A stretch of 42,384 nt of DNA from an uncultured Deinococcales bacterium (GCA_964244895.1 CAXTKV010000015.1:1-42384); one strand, 5' to 3'; positions 429-42,149 are shown, numbered from the stretch's first letter. Translations and numbers: made by a program. The notes: generated by a model not told the origin, from the letters alone.

Positions 429-492
429 CCCGCTCGAGGGAAAACCAATCCGTCCGGTTCGAGGTTGAACGCTCAAGCCGTGCCCAAAGGAG

Positions 493-1021
493 ATGGTGAT
501 GACCCAGCAACCAAACTGGCAGGGCACGCTCGAGGCTCCCATGTTGAGACGCGATGCGCTGCGCGTGGCGGCGGGCGATGGGGGCGCTTGGATTACCGTT
601 CGTGCGATCCGCTGCGCTGGCTCAGAGCGCGGCAGAAACGGCGACCGATTACACGCTGCGATTGGCGCAACAGCCGCCCGCGACGATCCTGACGGACGTG
701 AGAGCCCGCAAGGGCAACAAGGAAGCCTGGGCGGTGCTCGAGGGTGTGTCCATCGCGCAGGTCGAGGTTTCGGTCGGTGGCTGGCGAGCGCCGCGCCTGC
801 ACACGAATACGCCGGAACTGGCGGTCGTGTTAGCGGGCACGGTGAAGGCGGGGCTGCAAACGCCACGGAAAGAATGGCTCGAGGTGGACCTTGAGGCGGG
901 CGATTGCGTCTACTTCCCGCTGGGCTGGCCGCACTGGTTCCGCAACGCGGGCAGCGGCGTGCTGAGGGCGTACTTCAACTACGGGCACGCGCGACCCAAG
1001 ACCATTGAGGTTCAAAGCTAG
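493..1021 (+). pseudogene. Cupin (oxalate decarboxylase/germin-like) with Tat-type signal, frameshifted near 570-578
   Basis: AAGGAG directly before ATG493 (in-frame ATG499 better spaced); LRRDALRVAAG in one frame continues as AMGALGLPFVRSAALAQ in the 554 frame; cupin motifs RAPRLHTNTPE and GDCVYFPLGWPHWFRN. Confidence 0.6.
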
Positions 1022-1154
1022 ATCGGCCTTGAATTTCGAGCCGCCCGAGAACACCGTCCAGTACGGTGTTCTCGGGGTCAGACGCGACAGCTTCGCGCGC
1101 TGGCGACACGGGTTCGTCTTGACCGGTGCGCCCAGGGGGAACGTGGAGGTCGGA

Positions 1155-1500
1155 TTGAAACAACGGTTGCTGCTGGGGGTGCTGGTGCTCTGCGCGATGC
1201 TGTGCGCGGGGTCAGGCGGGCGCGCCGAAGGGTTCTGCGTGGGGTTCGGGTTCGGCTTACCCACCTTCGCCGAGGTGCAGTTGGGCTATGCCGAACAGGA
1301 CTTCGGCGTGAGCGTCTACAGCGGGTCTTTCCTCATCACCGCGCTCGGGGTGGACGGCTACGGGCGCGTTCCGACCGACTGGGTGCGTGGCACGTCGACG
1401 GTGGCGTGGCGTACCTCAACGAGGGGTTCACCAAAACGTCCTGGCTGGCCCTCCGTGCCCTGCTGGGCGCGGAGTGGCGTCTGAGCGATGACGTAGCGCT
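1155..1500 (+). pseudogene. Secreted/outer-membrane beta-strand protein, frameshifted (~1390) and truncated by an IS3 remnant
   Basis: GGAGG then TTG1155; signal peptide MKQRLLLGVLVLCAMLC; amphipathic strands continue in another frame (HVDGGVAYL..LGAEWRL). Confidence 0.45.
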
Positions 1501-1934
1501 AACCAGCCCTCAAACGTTGGAATGTACGTCAAGTCAGCCACCCACTTTTGATTCGGTTTTGGGGCATCGAACCTGCGCTTGAGCTTGTTCTCAACAATGG
1601 CGTGTACGTGCGCGGAATCCGTGGTTTTGCGCCTGAACTTGCCTTAGCGTTTGCCCTCCATTCCAAGCTCACGCATGATGCTCGCTACTCGAGGACAGCT
1701 GCACGATGCCTTGGCCTAGAGTAAGCACGCGTGAATTCGGGCGCTACCGTAGGTTTTTCGGCTGTTCTCGTTCATGGTTTTGATCTTCTCGCTCAAAGCC
1801 TTCTTTTCCTTGGATCGTTTGGATTCCGGCCTTTTTTGCCACGCGTAGTTCCCGCTCTCGCTGACCTCGAGCATCCGGCACATAATCTCGAGGTTGAACT
1901 CGGTGCGGTGATCGTGGATGAGCAGGATGATTAG
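1500..1934 (-). pseudogene. IS3 transposase OrfB fragment
   Basis: MCRMLEVSESGNYAW, TYGSARIHA and WVADLTYIPT motifs; internal stops; ends abruptly. Confidence 0.8.
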
Positions 1935-2269
1935 CGGGTTTCTTTGGTGAAAAAGGCCAGCGCTTTTTTTAGGATTTCCCGTTCCTGGCGGGCAATCTCG
2001 AGTTTTCGTTTGAGTCGCTGGTTTTCTTGTTCCTGCTCGCTTAAGGCGCCATGGCCACGACCCGTGAAGACGGGTCTCGCCCTGCTCGCGCCGTGTTCAT
2101 GCTCGCGCTTCCAGCGTCCAAGCATGTTGGCGTTGATGCCGAGGTTGGTCGCGGTTTTGCTGACGCTTTCGGTTTGGGCGAGTTGCACGGCGTGGAGTTT
2201 GTACTCGGCGGCGTAGGGTTTGTGTTTGACCATGACGACCTCCATTGTGAGGCTGTTCTGGTCGTCCAC
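1931..2269 (-). CDS. IS3-family transposase OrfA
   Basis: YAAEYKLHAVQLA..LGINANMLGRWKR HTH and leucine zipper ENQRLKRKLEIARQEREILKKA. Confidence 0.85.
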   Translation of the reverse strand: MDDQNSLTMEVVMVKHKPYAAEYKLHAVQLAQTESVSKTATNLGINANMLGRWKREHEHGASRARPVFTGRGHGALSEQEQENQRLKRKLEIARQEREILKKALAFFTKETR

Positions 2270-2553
2270 AAAATCTTAGTCAGATCAGTGTACGAAGTTT
2301 CGTGTCCGTTGGTCATCCTGAACACCAGCTCAGGAGCACCAGTTTGAGAAGACCGTACGGGATGCTAAATCGCGTCTGCACCTAAGACGGTGTTCTCGCA
2401 GGGCACCGGCAACGGGTTCGTATTCGGCCTGCCCGGAAACCTGACGAGGCTCGAGCCCTACCATCGCCCCAGCGCGCGTCCGGGCCAGGTCGTTGATCAC
2501 CACTCGAGTTTCGCGTGACCACCATCGTCAACCTATGGTTCAAAACCGCTCCG

Positions 2554-3914: not shown

Positions 3915-4637
3915 TCACGTCTCGGCCTTGAGCCTTCGCGCGGCCCTCTCGCGCGGAGCACGCTCGACCCGAGCCTGCACCGCCCGCAGCGCGCCCGTGT
4001 CCTCAGGGGCGTCCTCGCAGGCCGCACAAATCTCTGGGTAGCGCTCGCGCCAAGCGGCCCAGCCCTCGCGCGGGTAGACTTTCTTAGCCTCCGGCGCGAA
4101 CAGTTCCGCCGCCTCGCGCTCGAGGTCCGGAAACGGGCACGCCAGAACCTTCGTCCTCTCGTATGCCGGGTGCTGGTTCCACGCGATCATTCGACCCGCG
4201 CCGCCCCACGGGTCGTCGCAGGCCCACACGACGCGCCCGATCTGAACCATGCCGATTGCGCCGCCGCACATCAGGCACGGCTCGAGCGAGGAGTAGAGCG
4301 TGCAGTGCTCGGGCGTTTCGAGGCGCTTGACCCGGTAGAAGGCGTCCATCTCGGCGTGGGCGAAGCTCGAGTTGCCGACGCGCTGCGGCGTTTTGGGCCA
4401 CGGCTCACCGCTCTTGTTGCGTCCCTCACTGATGATCGTGCCGTGCCCATCCACGATCACGCACCCGATCGGGCTCGAGCCGCGTTGCACGCTCTGGCGG
4501 GCGAGTTCGAGTGCGCGTTCGAGCATGGCGCGATCAAGCCTTTGGGGGGTTGAGCTCGTGCGCTGATTCCTTGCGGGATCCGTGGCGGCCTCGGGCGATC
4601 TCGAGGCGGAACGCGCTGAACGCTTCGATTTCAACAT
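3915..4637 (-). CDS. Zn-dependent nucleoside/nucleotide deaminase (TadA/guanine deaminase-like)
   Basis: PIGCVIV, HAE and LYSSLEPCLMC motifs. Confidence 0.9.
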   Translation of the reverse strand: MLKSKRSARSASRSPEAATDPARNQRTSSTPQRLDRAMLERALELARQSVQRGSSPIGCVIVDGHGTIISEGRNKSGEPWPKTPQRVGNSSFAHAEMDAFYRVKRLETPEHCTLYSSLEPCLMCGGAIGMVQIGRVVWACDDPWGGAGRMIAWNQHPAYERTKVLACPFPDLEREAAELFAPEAKKVYPREGWAAWRERYPEICAACEDAPEDTGALRAVQARVERAPRERAARRLKAET

Positions 4638-4648
4638 GTCTTCACCCT

Positions 4649-6136
4649 TCAGTTAGTCGACGACGCGGGAACCCAAGTGGACACCTTGCCTGCCGGACAG
4701 CAGAATTCAGCCCAGCCCTCTTGGTTGGTCGTGATCGGCTCAAGGATGTGCTCCGTCAGGTCGCGGTACACAGTGTTGGGCTGCCCGACCTGCATCCACT
4801 TGCTGCCCGCATCACCGTTGCTGATCACCACCGCCATCCCGCCGGGGTGTTCATCGTTGCCGAGCCTGGTCCAGCCGATGCAGTTGGTGTGATCGAAGTA
4901 ATCGTACTGATCGCTGAAGGCGAACCGCTGGCGGGCCTCAAGGAACTTGTCGATCAGGAACTTCTGCGCGTCGATGACGATCTCGTAATCGTTGCCGTCG
5001 CGCCCCTTGTCTTTGTACTCGGCTCCGTAGTAATCGGCATAGAACAGGCACGGGTAGCCGTCGCGTCGCAGCAGGATCAACGCGTAGGCCAACGGCTTGA
5101 ACCATCCCTCGACCTGGGATTCGAGCGCCTGCAGGGGCTGGGAGTCGTGGTTGTCGACCAGCGTCACCGCCAGGGTTGGGTGCCGCGCCACCAGCGAACC
5201 CTCGAAGATGCGGCGCAAGTCGTACCCGCTGCCCGCTTGGCTGGCCTCGTGGAAGTTCTTGTGGAGCGGAGCGTCGAACAGCGTGATGCGCCCGTCGGTG
5301 CTCTCGATGAAGTGCTGGAGCGCCTCGAGTTCGTAGGACCAGTACTCGCCAACCGCGAACAAATCTTTTCCCGTTTGCTGGCTGACCGCGTTCAGCCAGT
5401 CGCGGAAGAAGCCGTGTTCGACGTGCTTGACCGCGTCGAAACGGAATCCATCCACCCCGGTCAGACCGACGAACCACTCGCCCCAGAATTGCAACTCGCC
5501 GAAGACCTCGGGGTGTTTGACGTCCACGTCGCAGCCCATCAAAAAGTCAAAATTGCCCTTTTCCTGATCAACGTTCTCGTCGAAGGACTTGCCCTTGAAG
5601 AGGTAGATCGCGTCTTTGTCGGGGTCGGCGGCGTCGTGGTCGATCGCGTCGAAGTGGTACCAGTGCCATTCCATGCTCGAGTACTGGCCCGCGCGTCCGG
5701 GAAAGGTGAAGTGCGTCCAGACCCTGACCGGTCCGTACTCGCCCACGACCGCGTTGCGGTCTTCGGGGTGCAAGGGCGTGGCCTCAGCATCCTCTTCGAC
5801 ATCCGCGCCCATGCGGTGGTTGAAGACTGCATCAGCATAGACGCGGATGCCAGCCTCGCGCGCGGCGGCGCAGGCGACCACGAACTCGTCTTTGGTGCCG
5901 TACTTGGTGCGAACCGAGCCCTTCTGGTCGAACTCGCCGAGGTCGAACAGGTCGTAGACGCCGTAGCCGACATCGTTGCCGCCAGCCGCACCCTTGTAGG
6001 CCGGAGGCAACCAGAGTGCGGTCACGCCGCGCTCCGCGAGTTCCTCGGCATTGTCGGCCACTTCTCGCCAGAGGCTGCCGTCGGCGGGCGTGTACCAGTG
6101 AAAGTACTGCATCATGACCCCGTTGAGTTCTGCCAT
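4649..6136 (-). CDS. amyA: Alpha-amylase, GH13_5 (AmyA/AmyS-like, no signal peptide)
   Basis: NGVMMQYFHWY, DVGYGVYDLFDLGEF, GFRFDAVKH, VGEYW, VDNHDSQP. Confidence 0.95.
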   Translation of the reverse strand: MAELNGVMMQYFHWYTPADGSLWREVADNAEELAERGVTALWLPPAYKGAAGGNDVGYGVYDLFDLGEFDQKGSVRTKYGTKDEFVVACAAAREAGIRVYADAVFNHRMGADVEEDAEATPLHPEDRNAVVGEYGPVRVWTHFTFPGRAGQYSSMEWHWYHFDAIDHDAADPDKDAIYLFKGKSFDENVDQEKGNFDFLMGCDVDVKHPEVFGELQFWGEWFVGLTGVDGFRFDAVKHVEHGFFRDWLNAVSQQTGKDLFAVGEYWSYELEALQHFIESTDGRITLFDAPLHKNFHEASQAGSGYDLRRIFEGSLVARHPTLAVTLVDNHDSQPLQALESQVEGWFKPLAYALILLRRDGYPCLFYADYYGAEYKDKGRDGNDYEIVIDAQKFLIDKFLEARQRFAFSDQYDYFDHTNCIGWTRLGNDEHPGGMAVVISNGDAGSKWMQVGQPNTVYRDLTEHILEPITTNQEGWAEFCCPAGKVSTWVPASSTN

Positions 6137-6592
6137 GTCGATCCTCCAGTTTCACGTGCCACGCACCGATTTCGCGCGCCAGTCCAGGCTAGGGTCTGCT
6201 CTTTTCGGGGACTGTGTTGCACCCTCAAAACTGTCTTGTGCGCTCGCACGGAAAACCATTTTTAAATCACTCAGCAGTTTCGCGTTTGTGCAGGCGTTGT
6301 GCACGGGCTGGATCGGTCACGTTCGTGGCGAACATTGGCCTCTTCAGCCCCGACCCACTGCCGCCAGATCCAGATCGCGACGCGAGCGAACGTTTGCTCG
6401 ATCTCTCGATCCGGAGGCGCTGATGACGCGCCGTTCGGCGATCACATGTTTTTTGTCACCACCTGTAGCCGGAGGCCGGGGCAACCGCGTCGAACCGGGG
6501 CTCAGCCGAACCTCAGGTTCCCCACAGACGAGTTTCAGGCCGGGGGGAGAACATTTGGTCGCAAGCAAATCCAACTTCGAGAGGTGAACACC

Positions 6593-7120
6593 ATGGGACG
6601 CATCACGACCGTGTTCGACAACCAAGCCGAGGCCACGCAGGCCGTCAACGACCTCCGCGCGATGGGCGTTTCTGACGCCCACCTGTCCTTCGTTTCCAAA
6701 CATATCCAGAGCGGCGAGGTCGGCGACGCAGCGAAAGCCGCAGACACGAGCGACAACGTCGCCAAGGGTGTCGGGGCCGGGGTGGCCGTCGGTGCGCTGT
6801 TCGGTATCGCAGCGGCGTTGATCCCTGGTGCGGGGCCGTTCATCGCCGCAGGTGCCCTGGCGCACACGCTCGGCGCGGTCGGCGGCGGGGCGGTCGCGGG
6901 AGCCGTGGTGGGCGGTACGGCGGGCGGCCTCGCCGGCGCCTTCGCCAACGCCGGCTACGACCGCGCCGAGGCCGATTACTATGGAGGTGCCGTCGAGCGC
7001 GGTGGAACGGTTGTTGTGGCCGATGTCACGGATGCGCAAGAATCGCAGGTTCGCGGTGTGCTCGAGCGCCACGGTGGACGTAACTCGAGCGCGGCCAGCG
7101 GTGTGGGCATCGCACCCTGA
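6593..7120 (+). CDS. General stress protein (YflT-like, glycine-zipper membrane protein)
   Basis: GAGGTG RBS; VFDNQAEATQAVNDLRAMG, IPGAGPFIAAG, YYGGAVERGGTVV. Confidence 0.85.
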   Translation: MGRITTVFDNQAEATQAVNDLRAMGVSDAHLSFVSKHIQSGEVGDAAKAADTSDNVAKGVGAGVAVGALFGIAAALIPGAGPFIAAGALAHTLGAVGGGAVAGAVVGGTAGGLAGAFANAGYDRAEADYYGGAVERGGTVVVADVTDAQESQVRGVLERHGGRNSSAASGVGIAP

Positions 7121-7325
7121 ACCGTTCGCTTTTCAGGGCGACCGATCGCCTTTGAAAACGGCGGGGTCGATCGGCCTTGCGGGCAACGTTGTTCGAGCTT
7201 TTCCAGCGAACACAAATTCATGCCACAGCCGAACCGCGAAAGCTGGCTGAGGTGAGGCATCCGCAGCGAACATGATTGGGCAACCATCACACACCAGACG
7301 AAAGTCTCAGCGCGAAAGGATCACC

Positions 7326-7820
7326 ATGAAACTCGAATCGCTCAAAGATCTCTACGTCGAACAACTTCGCGACCTCTACAGCGCCGAGAGCCAGCTCGTC
7401 GAGGCCCTGCCGAAGATGGCCAAGGCTGCAACGCATCCCGAACTGAAGCGGGCCTTCGAGGCTCACCTCGAACAGACCAAACGCCAGAAGAGCGACCTCG
7501 AGCAGATCATCGTCGGCCTTGGAGCCAAACCGGGCGGGCACACCTGCAAAGCGATGAAAGGACTCGTCGAGGAGGGCGCGGAGTTAATCGAGGAGAAAAA
7601 GGATTCCGAGCGCAATGTGCTGGATGCCGGCTTGATTGCCGCCGCACAGCGGGTGGAGCACTACGAGATCGCGGGCTACGGCACGGTTCGCACCTACGCC
7701 GAAATGCTGGGCGAGAACGAGGCGGCCGCCGTACTCGACCGGATCGCGCACGAGGAGGGCGAGACGGACCACAAACTTACCAAGCTCGCCCTGGAGGTCG
7801 TTAACCCGGCGGCGGCCTGA
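7326..7820 (+). CDS. yciF: Ferritin-like DUF892 stress protein
   Basis: AAGGA RBS; LRDLYSAESQL, HLEQT, DAGLIAAAQRVEHYEIAGYG. Confidence 0.92.
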   Translation: MKLESLKDLYVEQLRDLYSAESQLVEALPKMAKAATHPELKRAFEAHLEQTKRQKSDLEQIIVGLGAKPGGHTCKAMKGLVEEGAELIEEKKDSERNVLDAGLIAAAQRVEHYEIAGYGTVRTYAEMLGENEAAAVLDRIAHEEGETDHKLTKLALEVVNPAAA

Positions 7821-7827
7821 CTGCGCT

Positions 7828-7847
7828 GATGGGCTCTTAAGCCCATC
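7828..7847 (+). terminator. Hairpin after yciF
   Basis: GATGGGCT-ctta-AGCCCATC; weak U tail. Confidence 0.4.
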
Positions 7848-8023
7848 GACGCTGTTTCACGCAGCTGCGCGCGGCCCGAAACCAGGCCTGTGGCTACAAA
7901 GTGGGCCGCGCGAATCCGCCGTGAGTCGTTCGACATCGACTCAACTGCGTTGGACGTGAACCTCACCATTAAGGGTTGTCGAGTTGACGGGCGCAGAGCG
8001 ACCCGACCCGGAAGGAGCACGAC

Positions 8024-8287
8024 GTGGCGACCTACGAGCACTTTCAGGAGGCCAAGAAATCCGAGAGCTTGCCAGATGGGGCTCACGTCGGTGCGTGCCT
8101 GACCTGCAAGCATTGGGATGCGCCCACCCCCCGCGTGGAGGTGATGACCCGCGAGGTCGCGGTCTGCTTGTACCGCGACCTGAGGCGCTATGCGCTCCTG
8201 GTCAATGGTTCGAGCGCCTGCAACCAGTGGGAGGAGCATCCCGACGCTGGTGCAGAGGCGAATGTTTACGCTGATCGAGGCCGATGA
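8024..8287 (+). CDS. Small four-cysteine protein (possible Fe-S/Zn binding)
   Basis: AAGGAG RBS before GTG; CLTCKHW...C...VNGSSACNQW. Confidence 0.7.
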   Translation: MATYEHFQEAKKSESLPDGAHVGACLTCKHWDAPTPRVEVMTREVAVCLYRDLRRYALLVNGSSACNQWEEHPDAGAEANVYADRGR

Positions 8288-8882
8288 GCTTCGTGCTGCC
8301 ACGCTCAGGAAGTCATCCTCAACGGCCTCAGGGCGAATTCCAAGATTATCGAAGATGCCTCGGTTTAGGGAGCCATGTTGAACTCTGAGATGCCTAAAGA
8401 GACCACCAGCAAAACCTGGGATGAACCCTCGCTACTCCTCGATCGCTTCGGATCATATGAACGTCAGAACGGTTCCTCACCACGTGAGAAGTCTTGGGTG
8501 CCATATTTTGTTTTCCAAAAACAAACAACAAAGTTCCCGGTAATTGCGGAACCAAAGCAAGTCGTCCCAGGAATTTTTGTAGTACACCTGTCAAAACTTT
8601 TAGCTCTCCAAAATGATTTTTTTATTAAGACCTAAATGTTTTATAAAATTGAAATCATTTAAGGCTATCAAATTTCGGCATGTTTAAAGATAAAGAGTGG
8701 ACACGAAGCAGTAACAGGGGTGACAACTCGGACTTCATTCAATCAGATTGTGAAACTTATTCCGAATGACAATATGATTAACTCGAGTTGATAAGCATGA
8801 CGAAAACGCTGTTGGTAAAGAAGGCGAAGAAATCGTTATTCCAGTTTTTAGGCTTCGCCCCACGAGCTGAGAGGAGCGTTCT

Positions 8883-10193
8883 ATGAATGTAGCCCAACGC
8901 CGCGTCACCGACGCTTCGTCATTTCGAGAAGCCGTCGAGCAAAAAAATGGCGACATCGAGATTGTAGGGGTCATCACCGACCTCCAAAGTGTGACCTTGG
9001 CGCCCGGAACGCGGCTTCGCGGCGCAGACGCAGGTGCAGAATTACATTTCAAGGAAGCCCAGCCGGGACTGCTTCTCAGTGCCAATCACGAGATTTCTGC
9101 CCTTCGTCTCGTCACTGACGATACCCAGATCGCGCTGGGCCTTGCTGACGAAGTCGACGATCTTGGGACAATCGTCGTCAGCGACGTCACGACTGTTGGT
9201 CGAGTTCATCTGGAGGGCAGCAAGGCCAGGAGCGGGCACATCGCCTTGACCAACGTTCATGTCGAGCGAGCCGATGCGCGAATGGCGGGCAATCGGCCCG
9301 CAGGGTTCGGCGTCGAAGTTCTGTTGGGTGCAATCACGGTTTATAATGCGTCGAAAGACGAAGCGAGCCGCTGGATCCTTGAAGCCGACAATTTGTCGGG
9401 CGGCACGAACGAGCAGCCTCTGCGCGGCAGCGGCGTGTTCGTTTTCGGCGGATGGTTTATCCCGATCGATGCCGACATGACCAAGGCTCCCGCTCCGACA
9501 CAAGAGGGTGGCACCATTGAACTACGTCGATTGACGACAGGCGACCTCTACAGTGACGGCGGCATTCCCAAGGGTATGAGTACGCTAATCGCAGGAGGCG
9601 TTTTCGTTGGTTCCGGCGTCGATGCCCAAGAGGTCATTAACGAAGGCACTACGACAACGTACGGGCCGAATGACATGGTACTCGACAATTGGGGCAAGGT
9701 GGACAGCTGGGTTTCGAAGAGGCTGGTCAAGTCGTTCGGTCCCAGCGGCATCGGCTTCGTTAATTTTGGCCAGCTCAACACGCTCAAAGTTGACGCGCCA
9801 ATCGAAACGAGAGGCATCGGAGCGCGTGGCTTCAACTTGTACGACGGTTCGCTCGATCACGCCGACCTGGAAAGCATTACGACTTACGGCGACGGCGCCA
9901 TCGGCATTCAACTTTCAAAGCCTTTCGGGAGGATCAGGATAGGGCATGACGTGCGCACGAAAGGCGGTGAGGGAGACAGCCTAGTGAAAGGTAAGGTCAC
10001 CCACCTCAAGGCCCATGCCATCAGCCTGAAGCAAGGAACCCGCGGTGACGAAATCAGTGTTGGCGGCGAGGTCGTGGCTGAGAACCAATCGATTCCGAGC
10101 TGGGACTTCGATGCCCCCGCGAGCTCGGTTGATCGAATCGAGGTCGGCGGACGACCATTCGATGCGGCGACCGTCGAGGGCGGGTCGCCGTAA
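8883..10193 (+). CDS. Hypothetical protein, probable right-handed beta-helix
   Basis: GAGGAG RBS; 436 aa; repeated [T/S]xGxxxxG[I/F] units. Confidence 0.8.
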   Translation: MNVAQRRVTDASSFREAVEQKNGDIEIVGVITDLQSVTLAPGTRLRGADAGAELHFKEAQPGLLLSANHEISALRLVTDDTQIALGLADEVDDLGTIVVSDVTTVGRVHLEGSKARSGHIALTNVHVERADARMAGNRPAGFGVEVLLGAITVYNASKDEASRWILEADNLSGGTNEQPLRGSGVFVFGGWFIPIDADMTKAPAPTQEGGTIELRRLTTGDLYSDGGIPKGMSTLIAGGVFVGSGVDAQEVINEGTTTTYGPNDMVLDNWGKVDSWVSKRLVKSFGPSGIGFVNFGQLNTLKVDAPIETRGIGARGFNLYDGSLDHADLESITTYGDGAIGIQLSKPFGRIRIGHDVRTKGGEGDSLVKGKVTHLKAHAISLKQGTRGDEISVGGEVVAENQSIPSWDFDAPASSVDRIEVGGRPFDAATVEGGSP

Positions 10194-10329
10194 TAAAATG
10201 CTGACCGACCTAATTTAACCCTGACCGCCTTCAAGAAATACAAGAGCGTATCCGAGGCGGTGAAATTGAACGCAAAGGTAAAACCGTGCAGCTGAGTAAC
10301 GGTAAATTTGCAAACGAATCTGTTCCCGA

Positions 10330-10578
10330 GAGCGTGGCGCGAGGGCAAAGTTGTGCGGCAGCACCGCATTGAGGCGGAGCGGGCACGGGACGAAAGCTCG
10401 ATCCAGGCGAGGTTCCGCATCACGTCAACGGGGACAAGTCGGGCAACCGCGTCGAAAACTTTCGGGTGTTGATCTCGCAGCGCCAGGACAATCCCTCGAG
10501 CACTTCGAGCAGCGCGAGGCTCGAGGGATTGTGCATTTGTTCGATCTCGAGACATGGTTCGGGACGATCCTTTCCTGA
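10330..10578 (+). pseudogene. HNH endonuclease remnant (two frameshifts)
   Basis: GKVVRQHRIEAERA / GRKLDPGEVPHHVNGDKSGNRVENFRVL / LEHFEQREARGIVHLF in successive frames. Confidence 0.7.
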
Positions 10579-11936: not shown

Positions 11937-11987
11937 ATGGTTGACATATCAACCAAACTCGAGTAGTTTGGTTGATATGTCAACCAT
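11937..11987. promoter_or_regulatory. Divergent promoter with a double MarR-type operator (perfect 23-bp inverted repeat)
   Basis: ATGGTTGACATATCAACCAAACT-cgagt-AGTTTGGTTGATATGTCAACCAT; TTGACA-17-TAGTTT. Confidence 0.8.
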
Positions 11988-13575: not shown

Positions 13576-13786
13576 GCGCTCCTGCTGATGCGGCGCTTTG
13601 CTGGGCAGTCAGAGCGCACCCTCAGCATCGTCGCCAGTGTTGATGGTGGTCCTCTCGTGCTTCGCCCCGATCCAGTTGCTCATCACGCTAGCTGACCCGC
13701 TCGACGCTGATCCTGCTGTCGATGCACGTGGCCACCGCCTGGATCATCGTGGCGGGACTGACCCGCCAGTCCACCGCGAGGCAACC

Positions 13787-14605: not shown

Positions 14606-14758
14606 CACCAACGGTTTGTCACAGCCGTTCGCCACGCCACCTCCGACTGGTCGCAAGGAACCCTGGGCATGCGCTCGAGGGACGAGTTCTGAAAGGCAAG
14701 ATCGGTCGTGAGGCCTGAAAACGAACCGTACGTCCAAAAATTGAACCGATCCCATCGT

Positions 14759-15613
14759 TCAACTCGCCTCCGGGGAGAACGCGCGCTTGAAGTCCCGCAC
14801 GAACGCCCGCGCCGCGATCGGTTCTCGCCCGAGGATGCGCCGCACCTCCCCGGTGACTCGAGCCGCGAGGCCGAAGCGGTTCGTGTTGTAAATCAAAATC
14901 ATCACGTTCACGAACTCCGGTTTGATCCCCCGCCGTTGCATCTCGATCCCGAACGCGAGCGGCGCGGGATTCGAGTAGGTGATCTCCCGCCCGAGGACCT
15001 CGGTGAAGAGTGCGGCCACCTCACCGTAGGTCAGCGCCTCGGATCCGGTCAGGTCGATCCCGCCGTCGACGATGTGCGGCACACTCAGCGCGCGCACCGC
15101 GACGGCGGCCACATCCCTCGCGTCGATGAAACTCGTGCGGCCATTCCCGGCGGGCACGAACAGGTCGCTGCGATCGCGGATGTCCTCGAGGTGGGTGGTC
15201 GAGAGGTTCTGCAAGAAGAAACTCGGGCGCAAGAACACGTGCGGAATGCCGAGCCGCTCGATGGCGAGTTCGAGTTTGCGGTGCGGCACGACCGGGTTGC
15301 CCTGGGCGCCGAGCAACGAGAGGAACACCAGCTGCTCGAGATCGAGGCGCTCGAGCGCCTCGAGGAAGGGCTGAAAGACTTTCGGGTCGCCCATCGCGGG
15401 TGGTCGCATCAGGAACACCCTGGTGACACCCTCGAGCGCCGCAGCGAAACTGCTCGGGTCGGTGAAGTCGAACCGCACCGGGTTCGCGGCCTCGGGAAGC
15501 CTCGCGGCGCGAAGCGGGTCGGTCACGGCGGCGCGCACCGGTGCGCCGAGGTCGAGTAAACCGCGCAGCACGTCGCCGCCGACGTTTCCGGTCGCTCCGG
15601 TCACGAGGATCAC
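14759..15613 (-). CDS. NmrA-like atypical SDR
   Basis: ILVTGATGNVG, LRPSFFLQN, FIDARDVA. Confidence 0.9.
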   Translation of the reverse strand: MILVTGATGNVGGDVLRGLLDLGAPVRAAVTDPLRAARLPEAANPVRFDFTDPSSFAAALEGVTRVFLMRPPAMGDPKVFQPFLEALERLDLEQLVFLSLLGAQGNPVVPHRKLELAIERLGIPHVFLRPSFFLQNLSTTHLEDIRDRSDLFVPAGNGRTSFIDARDVAAVAVRALSVPHIVDGGIDLTGSEALTYGEVAALFTEVLGREITYSNPAPLAFGIEMQRRGIKPEFVNVMILIYNTNRFGLAARVTGEVRRILGREPIAARAFVRDFKRAFSPEAS

Positions 15614-15622
15614 GGCTCGAGC

Positions 15623-16516
15623 CTACCCGACCCGCGCGAAGGCATCGCGGTGCGAGCGCACCCAATCCTCGAGCCGGGTCAGGTTGACGGGCAATTGCTC
15701 GAGCACGCCGGTCATGTCCACGGCCATCGCATCGTCCGGTTGGGCATTCGAATGCGCGTAGGCGACGCGGATACCCTCTTCCGCCTCGGGTCCTACAATG
15801 GCCGACATCGTGTCGGCGAAGACTTGCGGGCTGATGCCCTCGTATCGAATCTCTCGCCCGAGACCCGCGCTGAAGGCCCGAGCGATGGCCGGCCCATCCA
15901 GGGCTTCCGGGCCGCCGAGCGTCAAGCGCTGCCCGGCCAGCTGCGGTCGCTCGAACGCGGCCACGGCGAGCGAACCGAGGTTCTCGCTGGCGATCCACGA
16001 GACGCGCATTTCAGCGCGGTGCGGGTAGGCGACCGCGTTCTGAGTCTTGATGCTCGGTAGACACCACGGCCCCAGAAGGTTCTCCATGTACACGCCGGGA
16101 CGCAGGATCGTATTCGGGATGCCGCTGTCCGCCACGAACTGCTCGAGCCCAATCCGGAAGTCCAGCATCGGGATGCCGGTCGGCGCGGCTGGCGGGTGGC
16201 CGCTCGCGTTGAACACGAGGTGGTTCACGCCCGCACCGCGCGCCGCTGTCAGCGCGTTCGCCAGGAGATCGAATGGGTTGCCGCGTGCGCTAAATGGAAG
16301 CATCAAGAATACGGCGTCCACGCCGGCGCTGGCGCGTTTCAAAGCCTCGAGGTCGCCCAGGTCGCCCTGCACGAGCTCCGCACCATTGGCCTTCAACGCT
16401 GCGGCGCGTTCGGGGTGGCGAACCACCACGCGAACCCGATGTCCGGCTTCGAGCAGCTTGCGGGCGACGGGTTCGCCTTGCGAGCCGGTGGAACCGTAGG
16501 TGAGGATCAATGACAT
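15623..16516 (-). CDS. NmrA-like NAD(P)-binding protein
   Basis: AGGAGG RBS; YGSTGSQG, ILRPGVYMENL. Confidence 0.9.
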   Translation of the reverse strand: MSLILTYGSTGSQGEPVARKLLEAGHRVRVVVRHPERAAALKANGAELVQGDLGDLEALKRASAGVDAVFLMLPFSARGNPFDLLANALTAARGAGVNHLVFNASGHPPAAPTGIPMLDFRIGLEQFVADSGIPNTILRPGVYMENLLGPWCLPSIKTQNAVAYPHRAEMRVSWIASENLGSLAVAAFERPQLAGQRLTLGGPEALDGPAIARAFSAGLGREIRYEGISPQVFADTMSAIVGPEAEEGIRVAYAHSNAQPDDAMAVDMTGVLEQLPVNLTRLEDWVRSHRDAFARVG

Positions 16517-26683: not shown

Positions 26684-27626
26684 GAAGTGCGGCTTTCCAG
26701 TTATGAACCGGCATCGTCCAACGCTTCGTGATGCTCCGCAAGCCCAGGTACAAGAGCTTGATCGCCACCTCGTCGCTCGGGAATGACCCTCGAGCCTTCG
26801 TGATCCTCCGCAACGAAAAGTTCGACGATTCAACCGAGTTGGTTATATACACCGCCCTTGTGATCGCGGCTGGATACGAGAAGCACGGAACCACTCGAGA
26901 CCAATTTCTGCGCCGGGACTGGCTGATCGAAGGGTACTTTGCGTCCCACTTGGCCGCGAACGCCTCGAGTCCAGCCTCAGCCGCCTGCTCGGTCGGAGCT
27001 TTGTAAATCGCTTTGAGGTCCTCACCACGGCTTTGCGTTCCTTCCACGACACGAAGTTCAGGCTGTAGCGCACCAAGTGAACGATGCAGAGTTGCACCTG
27101 AGCGCGAGGTAACACCGTCTCGATGGCTTCTGGAAACCCGTTTAAACCGTCCACGCACGGGCGTGCAATCCACGCCCGTGCGTGACGAACACGTCGTTCA
27201 CCCCCTCGGTTCTTGAGTTCCGTCAGGATCGAGAGCCAGAACTTCGCATTTTCCGTCCGAGCAATCCAAAGCCCAAGCACGTCCTTGACGCCCGTCGCAC
27301 CGCTACGCGAGCGGGTTCATCCCGCGCAGCGGGGTGCGAAGAGATTCACGCCGATGGCGTCATGCAACGCATGCAGGGCATGGCGTACACGGCCTTGGTT
27401 TTGACCGCCCCATCATCCATGATTTTCGAGTGCAAACAGTCGAGGTGAACGATTGGGTAGCGCGAATGGCCCGTCAGGTGCCGTCTAGTGAGCAAGAGGG
27501 TCGCTTCGAGCGACCTGGATTGCCAGGTCTTGATTTCGAACGACACCGATGCTGTTTCGGACGAGATCAGTCCGGGCTGACCTCGACCACAGACATCTCC
27601 TCGAGATGCGCCTGGGTTTCTCGGGT
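26684..27626 (-). mobile_element. IS256-family transposase pseudogene (multiple frameshifts)
   Basis: STRETQAHLEEM..VSPD, YPIVHLD, VLGLWIARTENAKFW, CVDGLNGFPEAI, ITNSVES, GSFPSDEVAIKLLYL, WTMPVHNWKAAL. Confidence 0.85.
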
Positions 27627-28504: not shown

Positions 28505-28647
28505 TAATATACTTCCATCAGCGGCCCACGCCTTCCCGAGGAGCCCACGCCCGTTCATGCCACTGATTGTTTCACATCCGTCCGAACCTCCGCACATCTC
28601 CACTCCGGCCCAGACCACGGCCTTCACCCGACGACAGGAGTCACACC

Positions 28648-29562: not shown

Positions 29563-29652
29563 TCCGCAGACCGATGGATGCGTTCAGAACGAACGGTTTC
29601 GGGGAACGGGGGCCGGAGAACCCCGCGCCGCAACCGCCCACGAGGAGGAATC

Positions 29653-30183
29653 ATGACAACTGACCATCACGCCGGAACGCCGCCCAGCCCAGGTTCGACT
29701 CCCTTTTCCCACTCGGTCGATACCGCGCCCGCCTACTGGATGCAGGACGGCCTGTGGATCATGCTGGCCGACGCCAACGACACCGGAGGCCGCTTCTCGC
29801 TGATGGAGCAACTGTTTCCACAGGGATCAGGGCCGGGGCCGCACAAGCACACCTGGTCGGACGAGACCTACTACATCCTCGACGGCGAGATCACCTTCTT
29901 GATCGGCGACGAGATCCACACGGCCAAAACGGGCGACTTCGTGACGGTCCCGCGCGACACCCGCCACGCCTTCCGGGTTGACAGCGAGACCGCCCGCTTC
30001 CTCAACGGCTACACGCCCGCCAGTTGGGAGGCCCTCATCGCCGACATGGGAACCCCGACGACCGAGCGCACTCTGCCGCCGAAGGGACTCAAGCCTGATC
30101 CCAGTCGCAAGCCGAACCCCTCCGCCAAGTACGGCCTCGACTGGTTGCCCGGCCCCGACCCGCTGCGCCCCGACGGGCACTGA
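29653..30183 (+). CDS. Cupin protein (quercetin 2,3-dioxygenase-like)
   Basis: AGGAGG RBS; PGPHKHTWSDETYYILDG, VPRDTRHAF. Confidence 0.88.
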   Translation: MTTDHHAGTPPSPGSTPFSHSVDTAPAYWMQDGLWIMLADANDTGGRFSLMEQLFPQGSGPGPHKHTWSDETYYILDGEITFLIGDEIHTAKTGDFVTVPRDTRHAFRVDSETARFLNGYTPASWEALIADMGTPTTERTLPPKGLKPDPSRKPNPSAKYGLDWLPGPDPLRPDGH

Positions 30184-30263
30184 ACTGGACGGGCACTCGA
30201 GAATTGAATTCGGGCGGACTGTACACCCGACCAGCCACCCGCAGCGAAAGGAAGGATAACGCT

Positions 30264-31175
30264 ATGGCACAACCCACGATCGTGCTCGCGGGCGCGACGG
30301 GCGACCTCGGCACACGCATCGCCAAGGCCCTGGTCGCACGCGGCGCGACGGTTCGAGCGCTGGTTCGCCCGGACCTGTCCGACGCCGACCGCTCGCGCCT
30401 GACCGCCCTCAACCTGACCCTCGCCACCGCAGACCCGACCGATGTTGCTTCGTTGGCCGCCGCCATGCGCGGCGCGAGCTGCGTCGTCTCTGCCCTCAAT
30501 GGACTGCACGAGGTGATCGTTGACCGCCAGAGCGTCCTGCTCGAGGCCGCCGCGAAAGCGGGCGTGTCGCGCTTCATCCCGTCGGATTACTCCGAGGATT
30601 TCACCAAAACCAATCCGGGCGACAACCGTAACCTCGACCTTCGGCGCGAATTCATGGCTCTTGCTGACAAGGCTCCGATCAAAGTCACCTCGATCCTCAA
30701 CGGCGCGTTCATGGACATGCTGGGGGCTGAGATGCCGATCATCCAGCCGAAAATCCACCGCGTGCTGTACTGGATCAACGCCGATCAACCGCTCGACTTC
30801 ACCACCAAGGACAATGTGGCTGCCTATGTGGCCGCCGCCGCGATGGACGACACCACGCCGCGCTTCCTGCGGATTGCCGGTGATACGCTGACGGCTCGAG
30901 ACCTCGCCGGGGTGCTGAGCGACGCGACGCAACAACGCTACAAAACCCTTTGGGTCGGTAGCCTTGGAATGCTGAGCTTCATGATCCAAGCGGCGCAGCG
31001 TTTCGCGCCGGAACCAACCGCGACGTTCCCAGCGTGGCAAGGGATGCAGTACATGCGCGACATGTTCAGCGGACGCGGCAAGCTGACGCCGCTCGACAAC
31101 GCCCGCTATCCAGAGTTGCGCTGGACCTCGGTGCGCGAGCGATGGGCCAGCCAGATCGCGCGCCGGATGCCCTGA
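30264..31175 (+). CDS. NmrA/isoflavone-reductase-like oxidoreductase
   Basis: AAGGA RBS; VLAGATGDLG, GVSRFIPSDYS; paralog of 28648. Confidence 0.9.
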   Translation: MAQPTIVLAGATGDLGTRIAKALVARGATVRALVRPDLSDADRSRLTALNLTLATADPTDVASLAAAMRGASCVVSALNGLHEVIVDRQSVLLEAAAKAGVSRFIPSDYSEDFTKTNPGDNRNLDLRREFMALADKAPIKVTSILNGAFMDMLGAEMPIIQPKIHRVLYWINADQPLDFTTKDNVAAYVAAAAMDDTTPRFLRIAGDTLTARDLAGVLSDATQQRYKTLWVGSLGMLSFMIQAAQRFAPEPTATFPAWQGMQYMRDMFSGRGKLTPLDNARYPELRWTSVRERWASQIARRMP

Positions 31176-36663: not shown

Positions 36664-36709
36664 TCTCGAGTGGTGAATGCGGGACACTGCACGCGTTCAC
36701 CACTCGAGA
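36664..36709. other. Intergenic 18-bp stem-loop
   Basis: TCTCGAGTGGTGAATGCG-N10-CGCGTTCACCACTCGAGA (one mismatch). Confidence 0.6.
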
Positions 36710-38354: not shown

Positions 38355-39764
38355 CTAGACTGACTTGCCGCGCAGCAGCTGGAGCGCCTCCGCATCTTTT
38401 CCGACCCTGTAAAGACTCAACACGCGAGATTTGAACTCGCGCGGGTCGGCCAGCTGGATGATCAGGCGCGAGCGCAGGCGCTCGACGTCCTGCGCGTGGA
38501 GGCCGTCGCGCTTGATGAAGAACGACAGCGCCTCGATCGTCAGGTCGACCTGGCGGCTCTTGGGCAAGGCCACGTACTCGCGTTCAGCCTGAAGCTCCGC
38601 CTGACGATCCACATCGCGCTCGAGTTCCACCTGGGCGTGCCGGGAGGCGAGCGTGGTCGTGAGCTGAGCGGCGCTCTTGAAGCCCGGCGGGTCGGCGTAC
38701 TTCGTCTCGGCGTCCCGGATCACGTCGACCAGCAGCGCGACCCGGTTGCGGGGGTTGAAACCGCTTTTGAGGATCGCCTCGTATTTGCGCACGCGATCGG
38801 CCACGTGGGCCTCGCCGAGGGCCCGGACGAGCTCGAGCCCGACGGGGCGGCTCATGCCGCGCCGCAGCAATTCGCCGAGTATGGCGGGATCTGCTTGGGC
38901 GTTCGCTGCGGCGAACAGGTAATTGATCGTTTGCGACTTGCCGCGTCCGACGAACCCGACGTCGCGCAGGTAGCCGCGAGCGATCAATTCCTCGTGCGCG
39001 GCGGACAGGGTGCGCCGGATGCGATCCGGAGCCTGGTCGACGATCTTGCACTCCTGTCCCCACTCGACCAGGTTGCGGCTGTAGACATCGAGTGGCACGC
39101 CGAAATCGAGCCCCTCCGGGTCGTAGCGCTTACCGTCGAGCAGCCGATAAAGGGCTCGCGTGAGCGGGCGGGTCAGCGAGATCAGGAACTCCAGGTCGAG
39201 CGGTTTGAGGTGGCTGGCCCGGATCGAGCGGACGATCACGTCCGAGAGCTTGACCACCAGTTCGCTGCCGCGCACAAACTCCGTCCCGTCGGATTCGATG
39301 AAGTTGAAGGCCTCGAGGTAGTTGAAGGTGACGGTCGTCCACTTGCGGCGGCTGCGGTCCATCCAGGCCTCGCTGGCCGTGTAGAGGGCCGAGCGCAGGC
39401 GGAAGAGGCTCTCTCGGAGCGCCTTGTAGTAGTGGCCCTTGTCGGAGAGTCCGGCGCGCTTGAGCAGGCGGTAGGCGGTCGTCGAGACCGTCCCATCCTC
39501 TGGAGCGCCGGCCTCGATGTAGAGATCCATAATGGCGGTCGCGATGTCACCGTCGAGCCCGTGAGGCACGCCACCGTATTCCTTTGAGGCCACGCAGGTC
39601 AGACGCGAGGGGCGGCCATCGACGATGAAGTTAACTTCCCAGCGGGTGAAGTCCTCCGGGATGCGCTCGTGAATCGAGATCAGGCCGAGGCGGGCGACGT
39701 TGGCCTCGTCGTAGGCCTTGAGCCGGGTCTCACGTTGCTGCGGATTCGGATCCGATTTCGCCAC
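38355..39764 (-). CDS. repA: Plasmid replication initiator protein
   Basis: DEANVARLGLISIHERIP, GGVPHGLDGDI, LTRPLTRALYRLLD, typical of Deinococcus plasmid Rep; adjacent iterons. Confidence 0.88.
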   Translation of the reverse strand: MAKSDPNPQQRETRLKAYDEANVARLGLISIHERIPEDFTRWEVNFIVDGRPSRLTCVASKEYGGVPHGLDGDIATAIMDLYIEAGAPEDGTVSTTAYRLLKRAGLSDKGHYYKALRESLFRLRSALYTASEAWMDRSRRKWTTVTFNYLEAFNFIESDGTEFVRGSELVVKLSDVIVRSIRASHLKPLDLEFLISLTRPLTRALYRLLDGKRYDPEGLDFGVPLDVYSRNLVEWGQECKIVDQAPDRIRRTLSAAHEELIARGYLRDVGFVGRGKSQTINYLFAAANAQADPAILGELLRRGMSRPVGLELVRALGEAHVADRVRKYEAILKSGFNPRNRVALLVDVIRDAETKYADPPGFKSAAQLTTTLASRHAQVELERDVDRQAELQAEREYVALPKSRQVDLTIEALSFFIKRDGLHAQDVERLRSRLIIQLADPREFKSRVLSLYRVGKDAEALQLLRGKSV

Positions 39765-40264: not shown

Positions 40265-40351
40265 TTTCCCCTTACTGGACGCCCGATTCGGTGCGCGAAA
40301 GCCCCTTCGGCTCTCGCGGTGCCGAGATTGACGAGGAGGCAGATGCCTTGT

Positions 40352-40379
40352 AGTCTACCCGCATCGATGCGGGTAGACT
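40352..40379. repeat. Perfect 28-bp palindrome
   Basis: AGTCTACCCGCATCGATGCGGGTAGACT. Confidence 0.85.
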
Positions 40380-40474
40380 CGAACCTTGAAGGTGCAACGT
40401 GAATCGTCCAGGACGATGTTTCTTGGCTTCAGGACTGCTCGCTGGGGGCTGTTCGGTGCAGGTTCTGGCAGTCG

Positions 40475-41149
40475 ATGTGCTGCCCCTCTGGTCGTTTCGA
40501 GACCGACAGCGTCGGGGCTCGGGTCGGCTCTCGAAGATCAGGCTCCAACGCGCCGGCGACCGTCCGTCTGGCGCGCCAGGATGAGGCGATGGATCCCCTA
40601 GAGCGGGTCGAGTTCGTTTTGGCGGCGGTCTCCCGAGCGCTTGGGGTTTCAGAGCGGGAGGCTGCCCGGATGATCCGCAGGATCGACAATGAACGCCGTG
40701 GCCACGTCCAGGGACGGACGGGTAGGGATCGGGCGCGCGAGATCACCAGCCTGGTCAATGCTGGCGGTTGGAGTGTGGGCGAGTTCGTCGAGCGCAAGCT
40801 GCCGCTCTTGGGGCTTCCCGAGGATCTTCGGTCGTTGGTGCGTCGTGGTCGTTTGGCACCGACCAAGGCGCTGGTTCTCGGACGGATTGCCGAGGCTGAA
40901 CACCGCCGCGCGAAGACCCAAGAGGTGATCTCGCGGCGCATCAGTCTTCGCACCTTGCGCGAGTCGGCTCACGCGAAAATGAAGTTCGCCGGTCAGGAGG
41001 AGCTTCAAGGTGAGTTCGATTGGATCGCGCGCGAGCTGACTCGACACCTCGGTCTGCGGGTTCGCCTCTCCCCCACCGATGTTCGCATCGAGTACAGCGA
41101 ACCCGAGCAGCTGAGCGGATTGCTCGAGCGGCTCGGGCTGGAGTTGTAG
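40475..41149 (+). CDS. ParB/Spo0J-like protein lacking the N-terminal CTPase domain (start uncertain)
   Basis: MDPLERVE, LPLLGLPEDLRSLVRRGRL..KALVL, LTRHLGLRVRL..VRIEYSEPEQLSGLLERLG. Confidence 0.7.
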   Translation: MCCPSGRFETDSVGARVGSRRSGSNAPATVRLARQDEAMDPLERVEFVLAAVSRALGVSEREAARMIRRIDNERRGHVQGRTGRDRAREITSLVNAGGWSVGEFVERKLPLLGLPEDLRSLVRRGRLAPTKALVLGRIAEAEHRRAKTQEVISRRISLRTLRESAHAKMKFAGQEELQGEFDWIARELTRHLGLRVRLSPTDVRIEYSEPEQLSGLLERLGLEL

Positions 41150-41230
41150 GAAATTTGGGGGCTTTGGGCGAACACTGCTTGCGGTCGTGGCCGATCCGCG
41201 AATCGGTGTGCGATTGCGGCTGGCGATGGG

Positions 41231-41572
41231 TTAGAGTTCGCCGTGAGTTTCGAGGTACGCTCTGAGCGCGAGCTCTACGATATCGCGAACTTCGCGGTCG
41301 GTTTTGACGGCGTGCAGTTTGAGCGGTTTGTGGATCGATTCTCGGATGGCCACGTTGATGCGCCGTTCGACGAGAATGTCCGGCGTGGGCGCCGGTTCAG
41401 CCTTGAGCGGTGGCGGCGCGACGTGTTCTTGTGCTGCAGTGTTTTGAAACATTGGTGTTGCGACAAACGGTTGCTCGGGCTCGTCGACGGCGCTCGGTCG
41501 CCTGATCTGGCTCGAGCGACCTGCAGTGCCGAGCAGTGCATTCAGATCGGTGGTCGGCTTGCGTTTAGACAC
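41231..41572 (-). CDS. ParG-like ribbon-helix-helix partition adaptor
   Basis: Disordered N-terminus; RRINVAIRESIHKPLKLHAV..VRDIVELALRAYL; overlaps the parA stop. Confidence 0.8.
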   Translation of the reverse strand: MSKRKPTTDLNALLGTAGRSSQIRRPSAVDEPEQPFVATPMFQNTAAQEHVAPPPLKAEPAPTPDILVERRINVAIRESIHKPLKLHAVKTDREVRDIVELALRAYLETHGEL

Positions 41573-42149
41573 GGACGCCCACCCCTTTCAAGGCATCCCT
41601 GAAGGGCTGAAGGAGTGATTCGGGGATCAGCCCGCCGAAAGCGCGACGGTACTCGACGCTCTTTTTGATTCGCGCCACCAGAGGATAGCCGAGCTGCGCT
41701 ACGGCCTCCGGCATTGCTCCTGAGAGGTTGTCGTGCTCCATGAAGTTGAGGATGATGCCGAGCCGGGCGTTTTCCTTGAAGTGCCCATCCCTCAGGACTT
41801 CGATGCTCGGCTCGAGGCGATCAATCTCTCCCCTGCCCGGTTGCAGCGGCATCAGAATCACGTCACTCTGTTTGGCAGTGCTCGCGAGCGTCTTTGGGTC
41901 GTTGGGCGGGGTGTCGACCACCAGGAACTCAACTTCCAGTTTCCCTGCCGCCTCGATCGGCGCGTAGACCGAATAGGGAAGTGCCAATCCGTCTGCCAGC
42001 GCATCGTTTGCCCAGGCGCGCGCGGATCCTTCCGGGTCGAGGTCGAGCAGTGCGACTTTGTGGCGTCTGGCGAGCACTTGGGCAACGCCGATGGCGCAGA
42101 GTGTTTTGCCGACACCACCTTTTCGGGAGAGGAGGCTGATCGTTTTCAC
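41565..42149 (-). CDS. parA: Short (type Ib) ParA partition ATPase
   Basis: SRKGGVGKT, LDLDPEGS, VVDTPP; no N-terminal HTH; leaderless TAGTAT-6-GTG. Confidence 0.92.
   Translation of the reverse strand: MKTISLLSRKGGVGKTLCAIGVAQVLARRHKVALLDLDPEGSARAWANDALADGLALPYSVYAPIEAAGKLEVEFLVVDTPPNDPKTLASTAKQSDVILMPLQPGRGEIDRLEPSIEVLRDGHFKENARLGIILNFMEHDNLSGAMPEAVAQLGYPLVARIKKSVEYRRAFGGLIPESLLQPFRDALKGVGVRV

Follow-up and report, generated by a model that had tools for sequence, protein, structure and literature searches.

Why does a single six-base palindrome, CTCGAG, recur so densely along a 42,384-nt stretch of DNA from an uncultured Deinococcales bacterium (here, the window)? A sequence-only reading had estimated some 160 copies, about ten times expectation, and proposed a lineage-wide, DNA-level force outside cyanobacteria resembling that behind highly iterated palindrome 1 (HIP1). 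Exact counting gave 160 sites (3.78/kb), the first at 433 and the last at 41811, with the eight that had been noticed between 15185 and 15705 among them. At the window's GC content of 62.6%, 14.2, 22.5, 35.0 and 70.0 sites are expected under models of order 0, 1, 2 and 3, respectively, and CTCGAG is the commonest hexamer. On our own gene calls, 82 sites encode Leu-Glu in frame 1, 8 lie in frame 2, 19 in frame 3 and 51 in intergenic or uncalled DNA, and three stand in an insertion sequence (IS) remnant, much as the reading had described. The 30 confident genes hold 77, 8 and 18 sites in frames 1, 2 and 3, compared to 36, 0.5 and 2.9 after synonymous shuffling.

The window is contig C15 of a 5.12-Mb assembly, G000 (328 contigs, 91% complete), whose NuoD protein has its best matches (73-76%) in Deinococcales bacteria, with Deinococcus next. 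Because its replication initiator resembles those of Deinococcus, Thermus and Meiothermus megaplasmids, the window likely comes from such a replicon, a megaplasmid or chromid, in an uncultured family of Deinococcales (f1). The excess extends across the assembly: G000 contains 21,883 CTCGAG sites (4.27/kb, or 4,270 per Mb and about one per 230 bases), which is 12.7x, 9.8x and 3.4x expectation at order 0, 2 and 3. CTCGAG ranks first among G000 hexamers by count, order-0 ratio and order-2 ratio, its density is 2.4-6.8/kb on every contig of at least 10 kb (190/190), and its flanking bases show weak bias. Most other 6-bp palindromes are depleted, with 30 copies of CGGCCG, 60 of CCCGGG and 129 of GGGCCC. 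The family likewise avoids restriction-type 6-bp palindromes, six of which occur at 1-5 copies each in 800 kb of the single-contig family genome G168.

Could codon usage, Leu-Glu frequency or a TCGA bias yield this excess as a by-product? Leu-Glu pairs account for 73% of the coding sites in G000, and the maximal-order (order 4) ratio reaches just 1.16 for the window and 1.25 for the whole assembly, a low value that arises because the 5-mers inside CTCGAG mostly derive from CTCGAG itself. We used synonymous shuffling of 3,950 genes, the remainder of 4,466 called with our own dicodon model after those under 300 bp or scoring low were removed. The 10,728, 776 and 3,141 sites in frames 1, 2 and 3 exceeded the 2,944, 61 and 446 of the shuffled genes by 3.6x, 12.7x and 7.0x, so that the excess also holds out of the Leu-Glu frame. 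Leu-Glu is the most over-used dipeptide of these genes (observed/expected 2.11, compared to 0.99 for Glu-Leu), 59% of its occurrences are written CTCGAG, and the Leu codon is CTC in 67% of cases ahead of Glu versus 10-41% ahead of seven other residues. Deinococcus orthologues, by comparison, carry 0-3 CTCGAG per 11-21 kb locus and use it for 0-2 of 18-43 Leu-Glu pairs. Although 21,883 of the 54,042 TCGA tetramers in G000 lie within CTCGAG, GTCGAC and TTCGAA are at or under chance, and the excess is therefore not a TCGA effect. It outlasts all three controls, which the sequence-only reading had named as the test that could refute it, and we consider a by-product of this kind refuted.

Spacers tell the same story, and they also bear on whether the sites are footprints of mobile DNA. 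G000 carries a family of hairpins resembling repetitive extragenic palindromes (REP-like; about 50 bp, 2,926 core matches, 2,578 of them intergenic), often with CTCGAG at the feet. Spacers average 6.3 CTCGAG/kb overall and 7.1/kb where the family is present, but those free of it still reach 5.4/kb, or 17.5x expectation, and 16.5x when CTCGAG is masked in the order-2 model. The hairpin core has 0-1 matches in seven other family loci that are equally rich or richer in CTCGAG, and two thirds of all sites lie inside genes, in frame and without indels. An origin in this hairpin family or other mobile DNA is thus largely refuted, and we give it almost no weight. Density peaks directly past stop codons and in convergent spacers and is lower in divergent ones. 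One-off variants of CTCGAG are mildly enriched in spacers, by 1.8-2.7x for transitions and by less, 1.2-1.45x, for transversions, and this may reflect decay of sites.

CTCGAG is favored strongly enough at the DNA level to alter protein sequences. Among the aligned columns of 13 nuo proteins, 24 have Leu-Glu in G000 but not in most Deinococcus orthologues, and 19 of these are written CTCGAG; the reverse holds at 8 columns. Control dipeptides were more balanced between columns where G000 has and lacks them (Glu-Leu 12/9, Leu-Asp 12/7, Leu-Ala 29/31), except for Leu-Gln (9 versus 1), which was likewise skewed on small numbers. Relative to other family members, G000 has a net Leu-Glu deficit (53 versus 76) and the members write 74-100% of their Leu-Glu pairs as CTCGAG, indicating a weaker force in G000.

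We next compared genomes across the phylum; the labels Thermus-like, Meiothermus-like and Deinococcaceae-like are inferred, partly from named homologues. All 18 other genomes of the family carry 4.6-6.8 CTCGAG/kb, with 0-161 copies per genome of the reversed word GAGCTC. The excess is thus lineage-wide and, with its presence in all frames and spacers, bears out the HIP1-like force that the sequence-only reading had proposed. In a survey of 150 genomes of the phylum, with densities derived from rounded genome sizes, these were 1.4-3.4/kb in 20 genomes of groups g4 (Meiothermus-like), g6 and g7, 0.7-2.9/kb in 8 f4 genomes, 0.6-2.4/kb in 12 f5 genomes, 0.6-1.6/kb in 27 Thermus-like (g3) genomes, where the reversed word is similarly common, and 0.01-0.46/kb in 82 Deinococcaceae-like (f2) genomes. 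Named nuo loci agreed: five family-level records of 45-54% GC had 5.3-6.9/kb, five Trueperaceae-type loci 0.6-2.0/kb, and 28 Deinococcaceae loci 0-3 sites each. The avoidance of CTCGAG in Deinococcus suggests loss or reversal of the trait.

Mobile DNA follows its hosts. The CTCGAG ratio is 6.9x on a Meiothermus taiwanensis plasmid, 3.7x on an Allomeiothermus silvanus plasmid, 2.3x on a Thermus brockianus plasmid (with the reversed word higher) and 0.8x on a Deinococcus peraridilitoris plasmid, while Meiothermus phage MMP17, at 7.7x, matches its host genus. Host-level density on the Meiothermus plasmid and the phage points to a force that acts within the cell. Viral contigs chosen by a three-site pattern were not used, as they could not be assigned hosts and the reversed word was often equally frequent (80 of 131 loci, a set selected on the trait). 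In MMP17 itself, a nuclease annotated as Vsr adjoins a D12 methyltransferase (locus 26062-27388).

To learn how sites come and go, we turned to two genera of the family that have congeners in the collection, which G000 lacks. We aligned 60 kb of genome G161 with five congeners, which are about 86% identical to it, and did likewise for 40 kb of G154 within its own genus, using 5 of 20 fetched regions. Turnover was then counted at Glu codons preceded by CTC (179+303 and 101+140 codon columns; 95% bootstrap). Gains and losses at these aligned orthologue codons show that sites arise by substitution. Where CTC precedes Glu, the Glu codon is GAG in 0.94 of cases, compared to 0.30 and 0.18 in controls. 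Sites were lost at 0.085x and 0.059x the rate of matched controls in the G161 and G154 sets, about 11-17x more slowly, and were gained at 3.1x and 3.9x the control rate, so the orthologue comparison did reveal the gains that the sequence-only reading had suggested looking for. CTCGAG is also the most conserved of 532 hexamers among family relatives (0.83, compared to a median of 0.53).

These rates discriminate between kinds of force. A gain-only mutator gave observed/predicted turnover of 0.28-0.83 and 0.10-0.61, outside the 95% bootstrap in both genera, and protection alone gave 1.41-4.66 and 1.02-7.8, also outside in both, narrowly in genus g24; both were rejected. A one-parameter model of selection or drive fitted (S of 3.6 and 4.2; observed/predicted 0.53-1.48 and 0.28-2.0), and the same odds ratio puts the scaled strength in G000 at about 1.7. 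The rates therefore fit selection or biased gene conversion. Where the sequence-only reading had invoked a methylation- or repair-driven process creating or keeping the motif, neither pure creation nor pure protection survives, and what stands is a force that does both. Amino-acid divergence is raised near sites (0.10, compared to 0.055-0.07), the pattern expected of a burden that falls where proteins tolerate change.

One candidate for such a force is a methylation-directed mismatch-repair ratchet (the Elhai model), in which an orphan methyltransferase would mark CTCGAG and repair would keep the marked strand. Cultured relatives make this attractive: CTCG(m6A)G is methylated at 99.5% in Meiothermus ruber, 94.1% in M. 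chliarophilus and 94.6% in Marinithermus hydrothermalis (Blow et al. 2016, PMC4752239 S3), by type II enzymes for which that source lists no cognate nuclease (M.Mru1279II, M.Mch9957IV and M.Mhy14884I). The main text of that paper reports CTCGAG clusters solely near the Nocardia origin and mentions neither Meiothermus nor Deinococcus. G000 has motifs of both MutS and MutL, and saturation with even spacing would be expected under the model (PMC4390886, section 3.4).

The enzyme itself did not appear where it would be needed. Methyltransferase matches in G000 comprised two Eco57I (type I-like), one N6_N4, one D12 and five N6_Mtase places on four contigs; we read the Eco57I matches as BREX-like by their neighboring genes. 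No C5 methyltransferase was found in G000, a loose methyltransferase motif screen added nothing, and a PaeR7I-like methyltransferase was likewise absent. An XhoI-family nuclease had no match in G000, although the same search matched no control genome either. The host CTCGAG or TCGA methyltransferase to which the sequence-only reading had pointed was thus not found, with no candidate of three enzyme types in the 91%-complete assembly. Among the 18 other family genomes, orphan-type candidates amounted to three weak partial matches, with none in G168. Clustering of the loci retrieved (at most 30 for each search) gave no methyltransferase group common to the family: Eco57I (18/19 genomes), N6_N4 (17/19), C5 and D12 (5/5 each) searches returned mixed enzymes, with a Dam-like D12 gene common to 3 of 5 family genomes tested.

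Two loci in G000 deserve mention in this context. On contig C114 (locus 5621-7760), a low-GC (0.43) methyltransferase and a partner gene span 2.35 kb with zero CTCGAG, and this pair is likely a recent arrival that has not yet ameliorated. On contig C6 (locus 6753-8665), a D12-class methyltransferase beside a NotI-family nuclease is inserted in a pyruvate dehydrogenase-like operon; CGGCCG, the rarest G000 palindrome, is a possible target of this pair.

Across the order we identified three orphan-looking gamma-class groups, one M.TaqI-like and two of the Eco57I family, whose specificities are candidates only; one of the latter we take to be PaeR7I-like. Jointly, the two Eco57I-family groups occur in 12/12 g4, 2/2 g7, 23/40 f5, 1/40 f2, 0/22 g3, 0/2 g6 and 1/23 f4 genomes, a distribution that in g4, g7 and f5 versus f2 favors the ratchet. 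They appear mutually exclusive in Meiothermus-like genomes, and the M_Eco57I_C group adjoins a primase gene in many Trueperaceae-like genomes. The M.TaqI-like enzyme (query G043) was found in 29/151 genomes at 52-58% to the G043 protein, 27 of them g3 (27/27), where its gene lies mostly between a pyridoxal phosphate enzyme-like gene and gyrB and is apparently a fixed orphan at a housekeeping locus. Since the g3 genomes are barely enriched in CTCGAG, we rejected this enzyme as a cause. NucS was dropped as well, as it does not track the trait (75/121 genomes; 17/26 f2 and 0/8 g4).

Further points weigh against the ratchet. No CTCGAG enzyme is listed for M. silvanus in the table of PMC4752239, yet its plasmid is enriched 3.7x, and we saw no fidelity gradient near sites. 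Methylation accompanies CTCGAG in a number of lineages, yet the search did not find it in those where CTCGAG is densest. Because no such enzyme is common to the most enriched family, orphan methylation in the cultured relatives probably serves as an accessory or protective mark rather than as the engine, and we consider the ratchet quite unlikely.

Spacing offered another view of function. Among abundant hexamers, CTCGAG ranked 1/61, 1/62 and 2/62 for evenness of spacing in G000 and 1/23 in 800 kb of G168, whichever of three tile sizes was used. Neighboring Leu-Glu sites within about 120 bp are both CTCGAG less often than when permuted (0.74 at 9 bp, 0.84-0.94 further out), while at 6 bp avoidance of the reversed word confounds the joint occupancy of 0.25. 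The same 800 kb showed no helical phasing (10-11 bp), and its long-period spectrum had a best peak of 6.5 against a null 95% maximum of 9.5, and power at 10-100 kb was raised mildly, by 1.4-1.6x.

Even spacing, together with the slight mutual exclusion of neighbors, could mean that selection keeps sites bound by a nucleoid, condensin-like or other chromosome-organizing protein, to which the selection-or-drive rates fit equally, as does the concentration of sites past stop codons and in convergent spacers. The lack of a spectral peak above the null and of phasing speaks against it, as do a phage and plasmids at host level and a Deinococcus that dispenses with CTCGAG. We think selection of this kind an unlikely explanation.

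Alternatively, CTCGAG could serve DNA uptake or transformation as a signal, recognized extracellularly or at the cell surface and accumulated by uptake drive in the manner of the DNA uptake sequence (DUS) and uptake signal sequence (USS), a mode now also suggested for HIP1. Even spacing and the drive-type pattern of gain and loss agree with this, and G000 has motif-level matches to type IV pilins and to ComEA-like, DprA-like, PilT/PilB-like and ComF-like proteins, although ComEC had no motif match in this crude regular-expression screen and no sequence-specific receptor emerged. The near-elimination of restriction-type palindromes suggests heavy sorting of exchanged DNA. HIP1 itself raises transformation in Synechococcus PCC 7002 (10.1101/2024.09.10.611283). 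A palindromic hexamer at 4-7/kb is, however, far above the need of one per kb-sized fragment, the spacing effect weakens past about 120 bp, and the phage, again, is at host level. The well-known transformable genera of the order are also those without the excess, and we regard an uptake signal as doubtful.

We tentatively favor a HIP-like molecular drive, in which a putative site-recognizing host protein would bias heteroduplex resolution toward the site-bearing strand. On this model, CTCGAG sites would arise by single base changes; heteroduplex would form when homologous DNA enters and pairs with the chromosome, or when copies of the chromosome in one cell pair with each other; the strand bearing CTCGAG would win slightly more often (biased gene conversion); and the bias would override weak codon and amino-acid constraint until slight saturation within about 100 bp. 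Several observations count against it. No recognizing protein was found and the heteroduplex bias is itself an inference, the rates come from two related genera rather than G000, and the intervals on gain are wide (1.5-8.4 and 1.0-11.7). Synonymous divergence is flat with distance from a site (observed/expected 0.92-1.04), so that no conversion or repair tract is seen, and a 91%-complete assembly could hide a methyltransferase, while one of an unrecognized family could have escaped the searches. Ordinary binding-site selection or uptake bias would yield an identical signature of gain and loss, and selection and drive are not separable by the present data. Polyploidy occurs in Deinococcus and Thermus, neither of which has the excess, and copy number alone is therefore not the cause.

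A bolder extension is that Deinococcales, separately from cyanobacteria, acquired a 'self' word that does not depend on methylation and is read by a protein steering recombination toward the DNA carrying it, with the drive intensified in the uncultured family and lost or reversed in Deinococcus. We hold this to be somewhat improbable as a whole. If true, it would establish sequence-directed gene conversion of a new class and explain HIP words in general, with a drive that rewrites proteomes (Leu-Glu doubled) alongside a near-total purge of restriction-type palindromes.

Features of the window are collected below.

Features of the 42,384-nt window that carry, lack or neighbor CTCGAG sites
Feature	Position	Strand	Details
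Dispersed CTCGAG copies	433..41816	none	n=160, exact count
REP-like hairpin	1044..1076		One copy of the genome-wide family; feet here are one-off variants of CTCGAG
Site-poor, lower-GC stretch	7503..10494		Single CTCGAG at 8782; GC 0.54 at 8001-10000
Perfect 23-nt inverted repeat	11937..11987		Between marR (-) and FAD-binding monooxygenase-like gene (+); one CTCGAG at 11958-11963
Densest stretch, 8 CTCGAG sites	15185..15703	-	Inside two adjoining NmrA-like genes (14759-15613 and 15623-16516; strand is that of the genes)
IS256/Mutator transposase remnant	26686..27296	-	Three CTCGAG (26789, 26894, 26964)
Hairpin with 18-nt arms	36664..36709		CTCGAG at both feet (36665, 36703); directly downstream of a - strand glyoxalase-family gene
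Replication initiator A, Deinococcus/Thermus megaplasmid type	38355..39764	-	
ParA-family partition ATPase	41565..42149	-	

The inverted repeat is likely a MarR operator, and both of its arms contain an internal near-palindrome, likely making it a double one. The sequence-only reading had placed a CTCGAG at its center; the site is in fact off-center, lying across the boundary between the left 23-nt arm and the 5-nt loop. Its placement of sites at both feet of the 18-nt-arm hairpin was correct. The site-poor stretch is likely recently acquired DNA. Homologues of the IS256 remnant (63-69% identity over one fifth of the query) are too distant for dating site gains, and Rfam had zero matches to the window. 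In 13598-16516 and 28567-31175, the replicon encodes NmrA/NAD(P)H-binding paralogues, five or more of them, along with a pair of short-chain dehydrogenases and genes of the MarR, TetR and cupin types.

How does CTCGAG compare with known systems? A literature search, from which subscription journals were absent, found no description of the CTCGAG excess. The familiar reading of the word, as an XhoI/PaeR7I-type restriction-modification target, was rejected, with CTCGAG enriched rather than avoided and no PaeR7I-like methyltransferase in G000. Orphan CTCGAG methyltransferases share the word and the order (PMC4752239), but no such enzyme was found in G000. Very-short-patch (Vsr) repair resembles the present case in that repair enriches one word, and its bias needs a C5 methyltransferase together with Vsr and depletes C-to-T variants. 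It too was rejected: G000 has neither a C5 enzyme nor a match to the Vsr motif, and its T variants show enrichment where Vsr would deplete them.

DUS and USS, in Neisseriaceae and Pasteurellaceae, are alike in their even spacing, their build-up through point mutation under drive and sites within genes (PMC1939737). They differ in being non-palindromic and present at about 1,500-2,000 per genome (PMC1939737). Such words have 9-12 bases and preferred flanks, whereas CTCGAG is a 6-bp palindrome with 12,000-35,000 copies per genome. The Chi sites of RecBCD and AddAB are polar and strand-biased; CTCGAG, as its own reverse complement, cannot be polar. It does share with Chi the character of a short over-represented word, and would share a tie to recombination of the kind proposed for HIP1 (10.1101/2024.09.10.611283).

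The closest likeness is to HIP1 (GCGATCGC) and the alternate cyanobacterial HIPs, which are palindromes and the top over-represented words of genes and spacers (Elhai 2015, PMC4390886; Rodriguez-Cruz et al. 2026, PMC13756078; Kamoku and Nielsen, 10.1101/2024.09.10.611283). As described there, HIP1 also spreads by substitution, is conserved beyond controls and is lineage-wide with exceptions, and the word overlaps an orphan methyltransferase target in some members while others are enriched without a recognizable enzyme; some HIP1-rich genomes lack a CGATCG enzyme (PMC4390886). CTCGAG has four of the HIP features that we tested: it is the top palindrome, occupies all frames and spacers, originates by substitution and is conserved in two genera. 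The differences are those of word, phylum and density (4,300-6,800 per Mb, versus 300-2,700 per Mb for HIP1; PMC4390886), together with a most enriched family in which no conserved cognate methyltransferase was found and no CTCGAG periodicity was seen in 800 kb of G168. The HIP1 word GCGATCGC is itself not enriched in G000 (283 copies; 1.67x at order 0, 0.28x at order 2).

The function of HIP1 has been unsettled for thirty years and HIP1 has been seen as a cyanobacterial oddity, to which Deinococcota add an independent and denser natural experiment. One order spans extreme (the f1 family), intermediate (Meiothermus, Trueperaceae), near-neutral (Thermus-like) and depleted (Deinococcus) states, and in cultured Meiothermus ruber, whose orphan CTCGAG methyltransferase is named (Mrub_2385), uptake, repair bias and protein binding are separable. 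A DNA-level force that alters proteins genome-wide also matters for codon and dipeptide models, for binning and for assigning plasmids and phages to hosts. Collectively, these comparisons indicate that CTCGAG works like HIP1, yet it is not HIP1, nor by its form a DUS, nor Chi.

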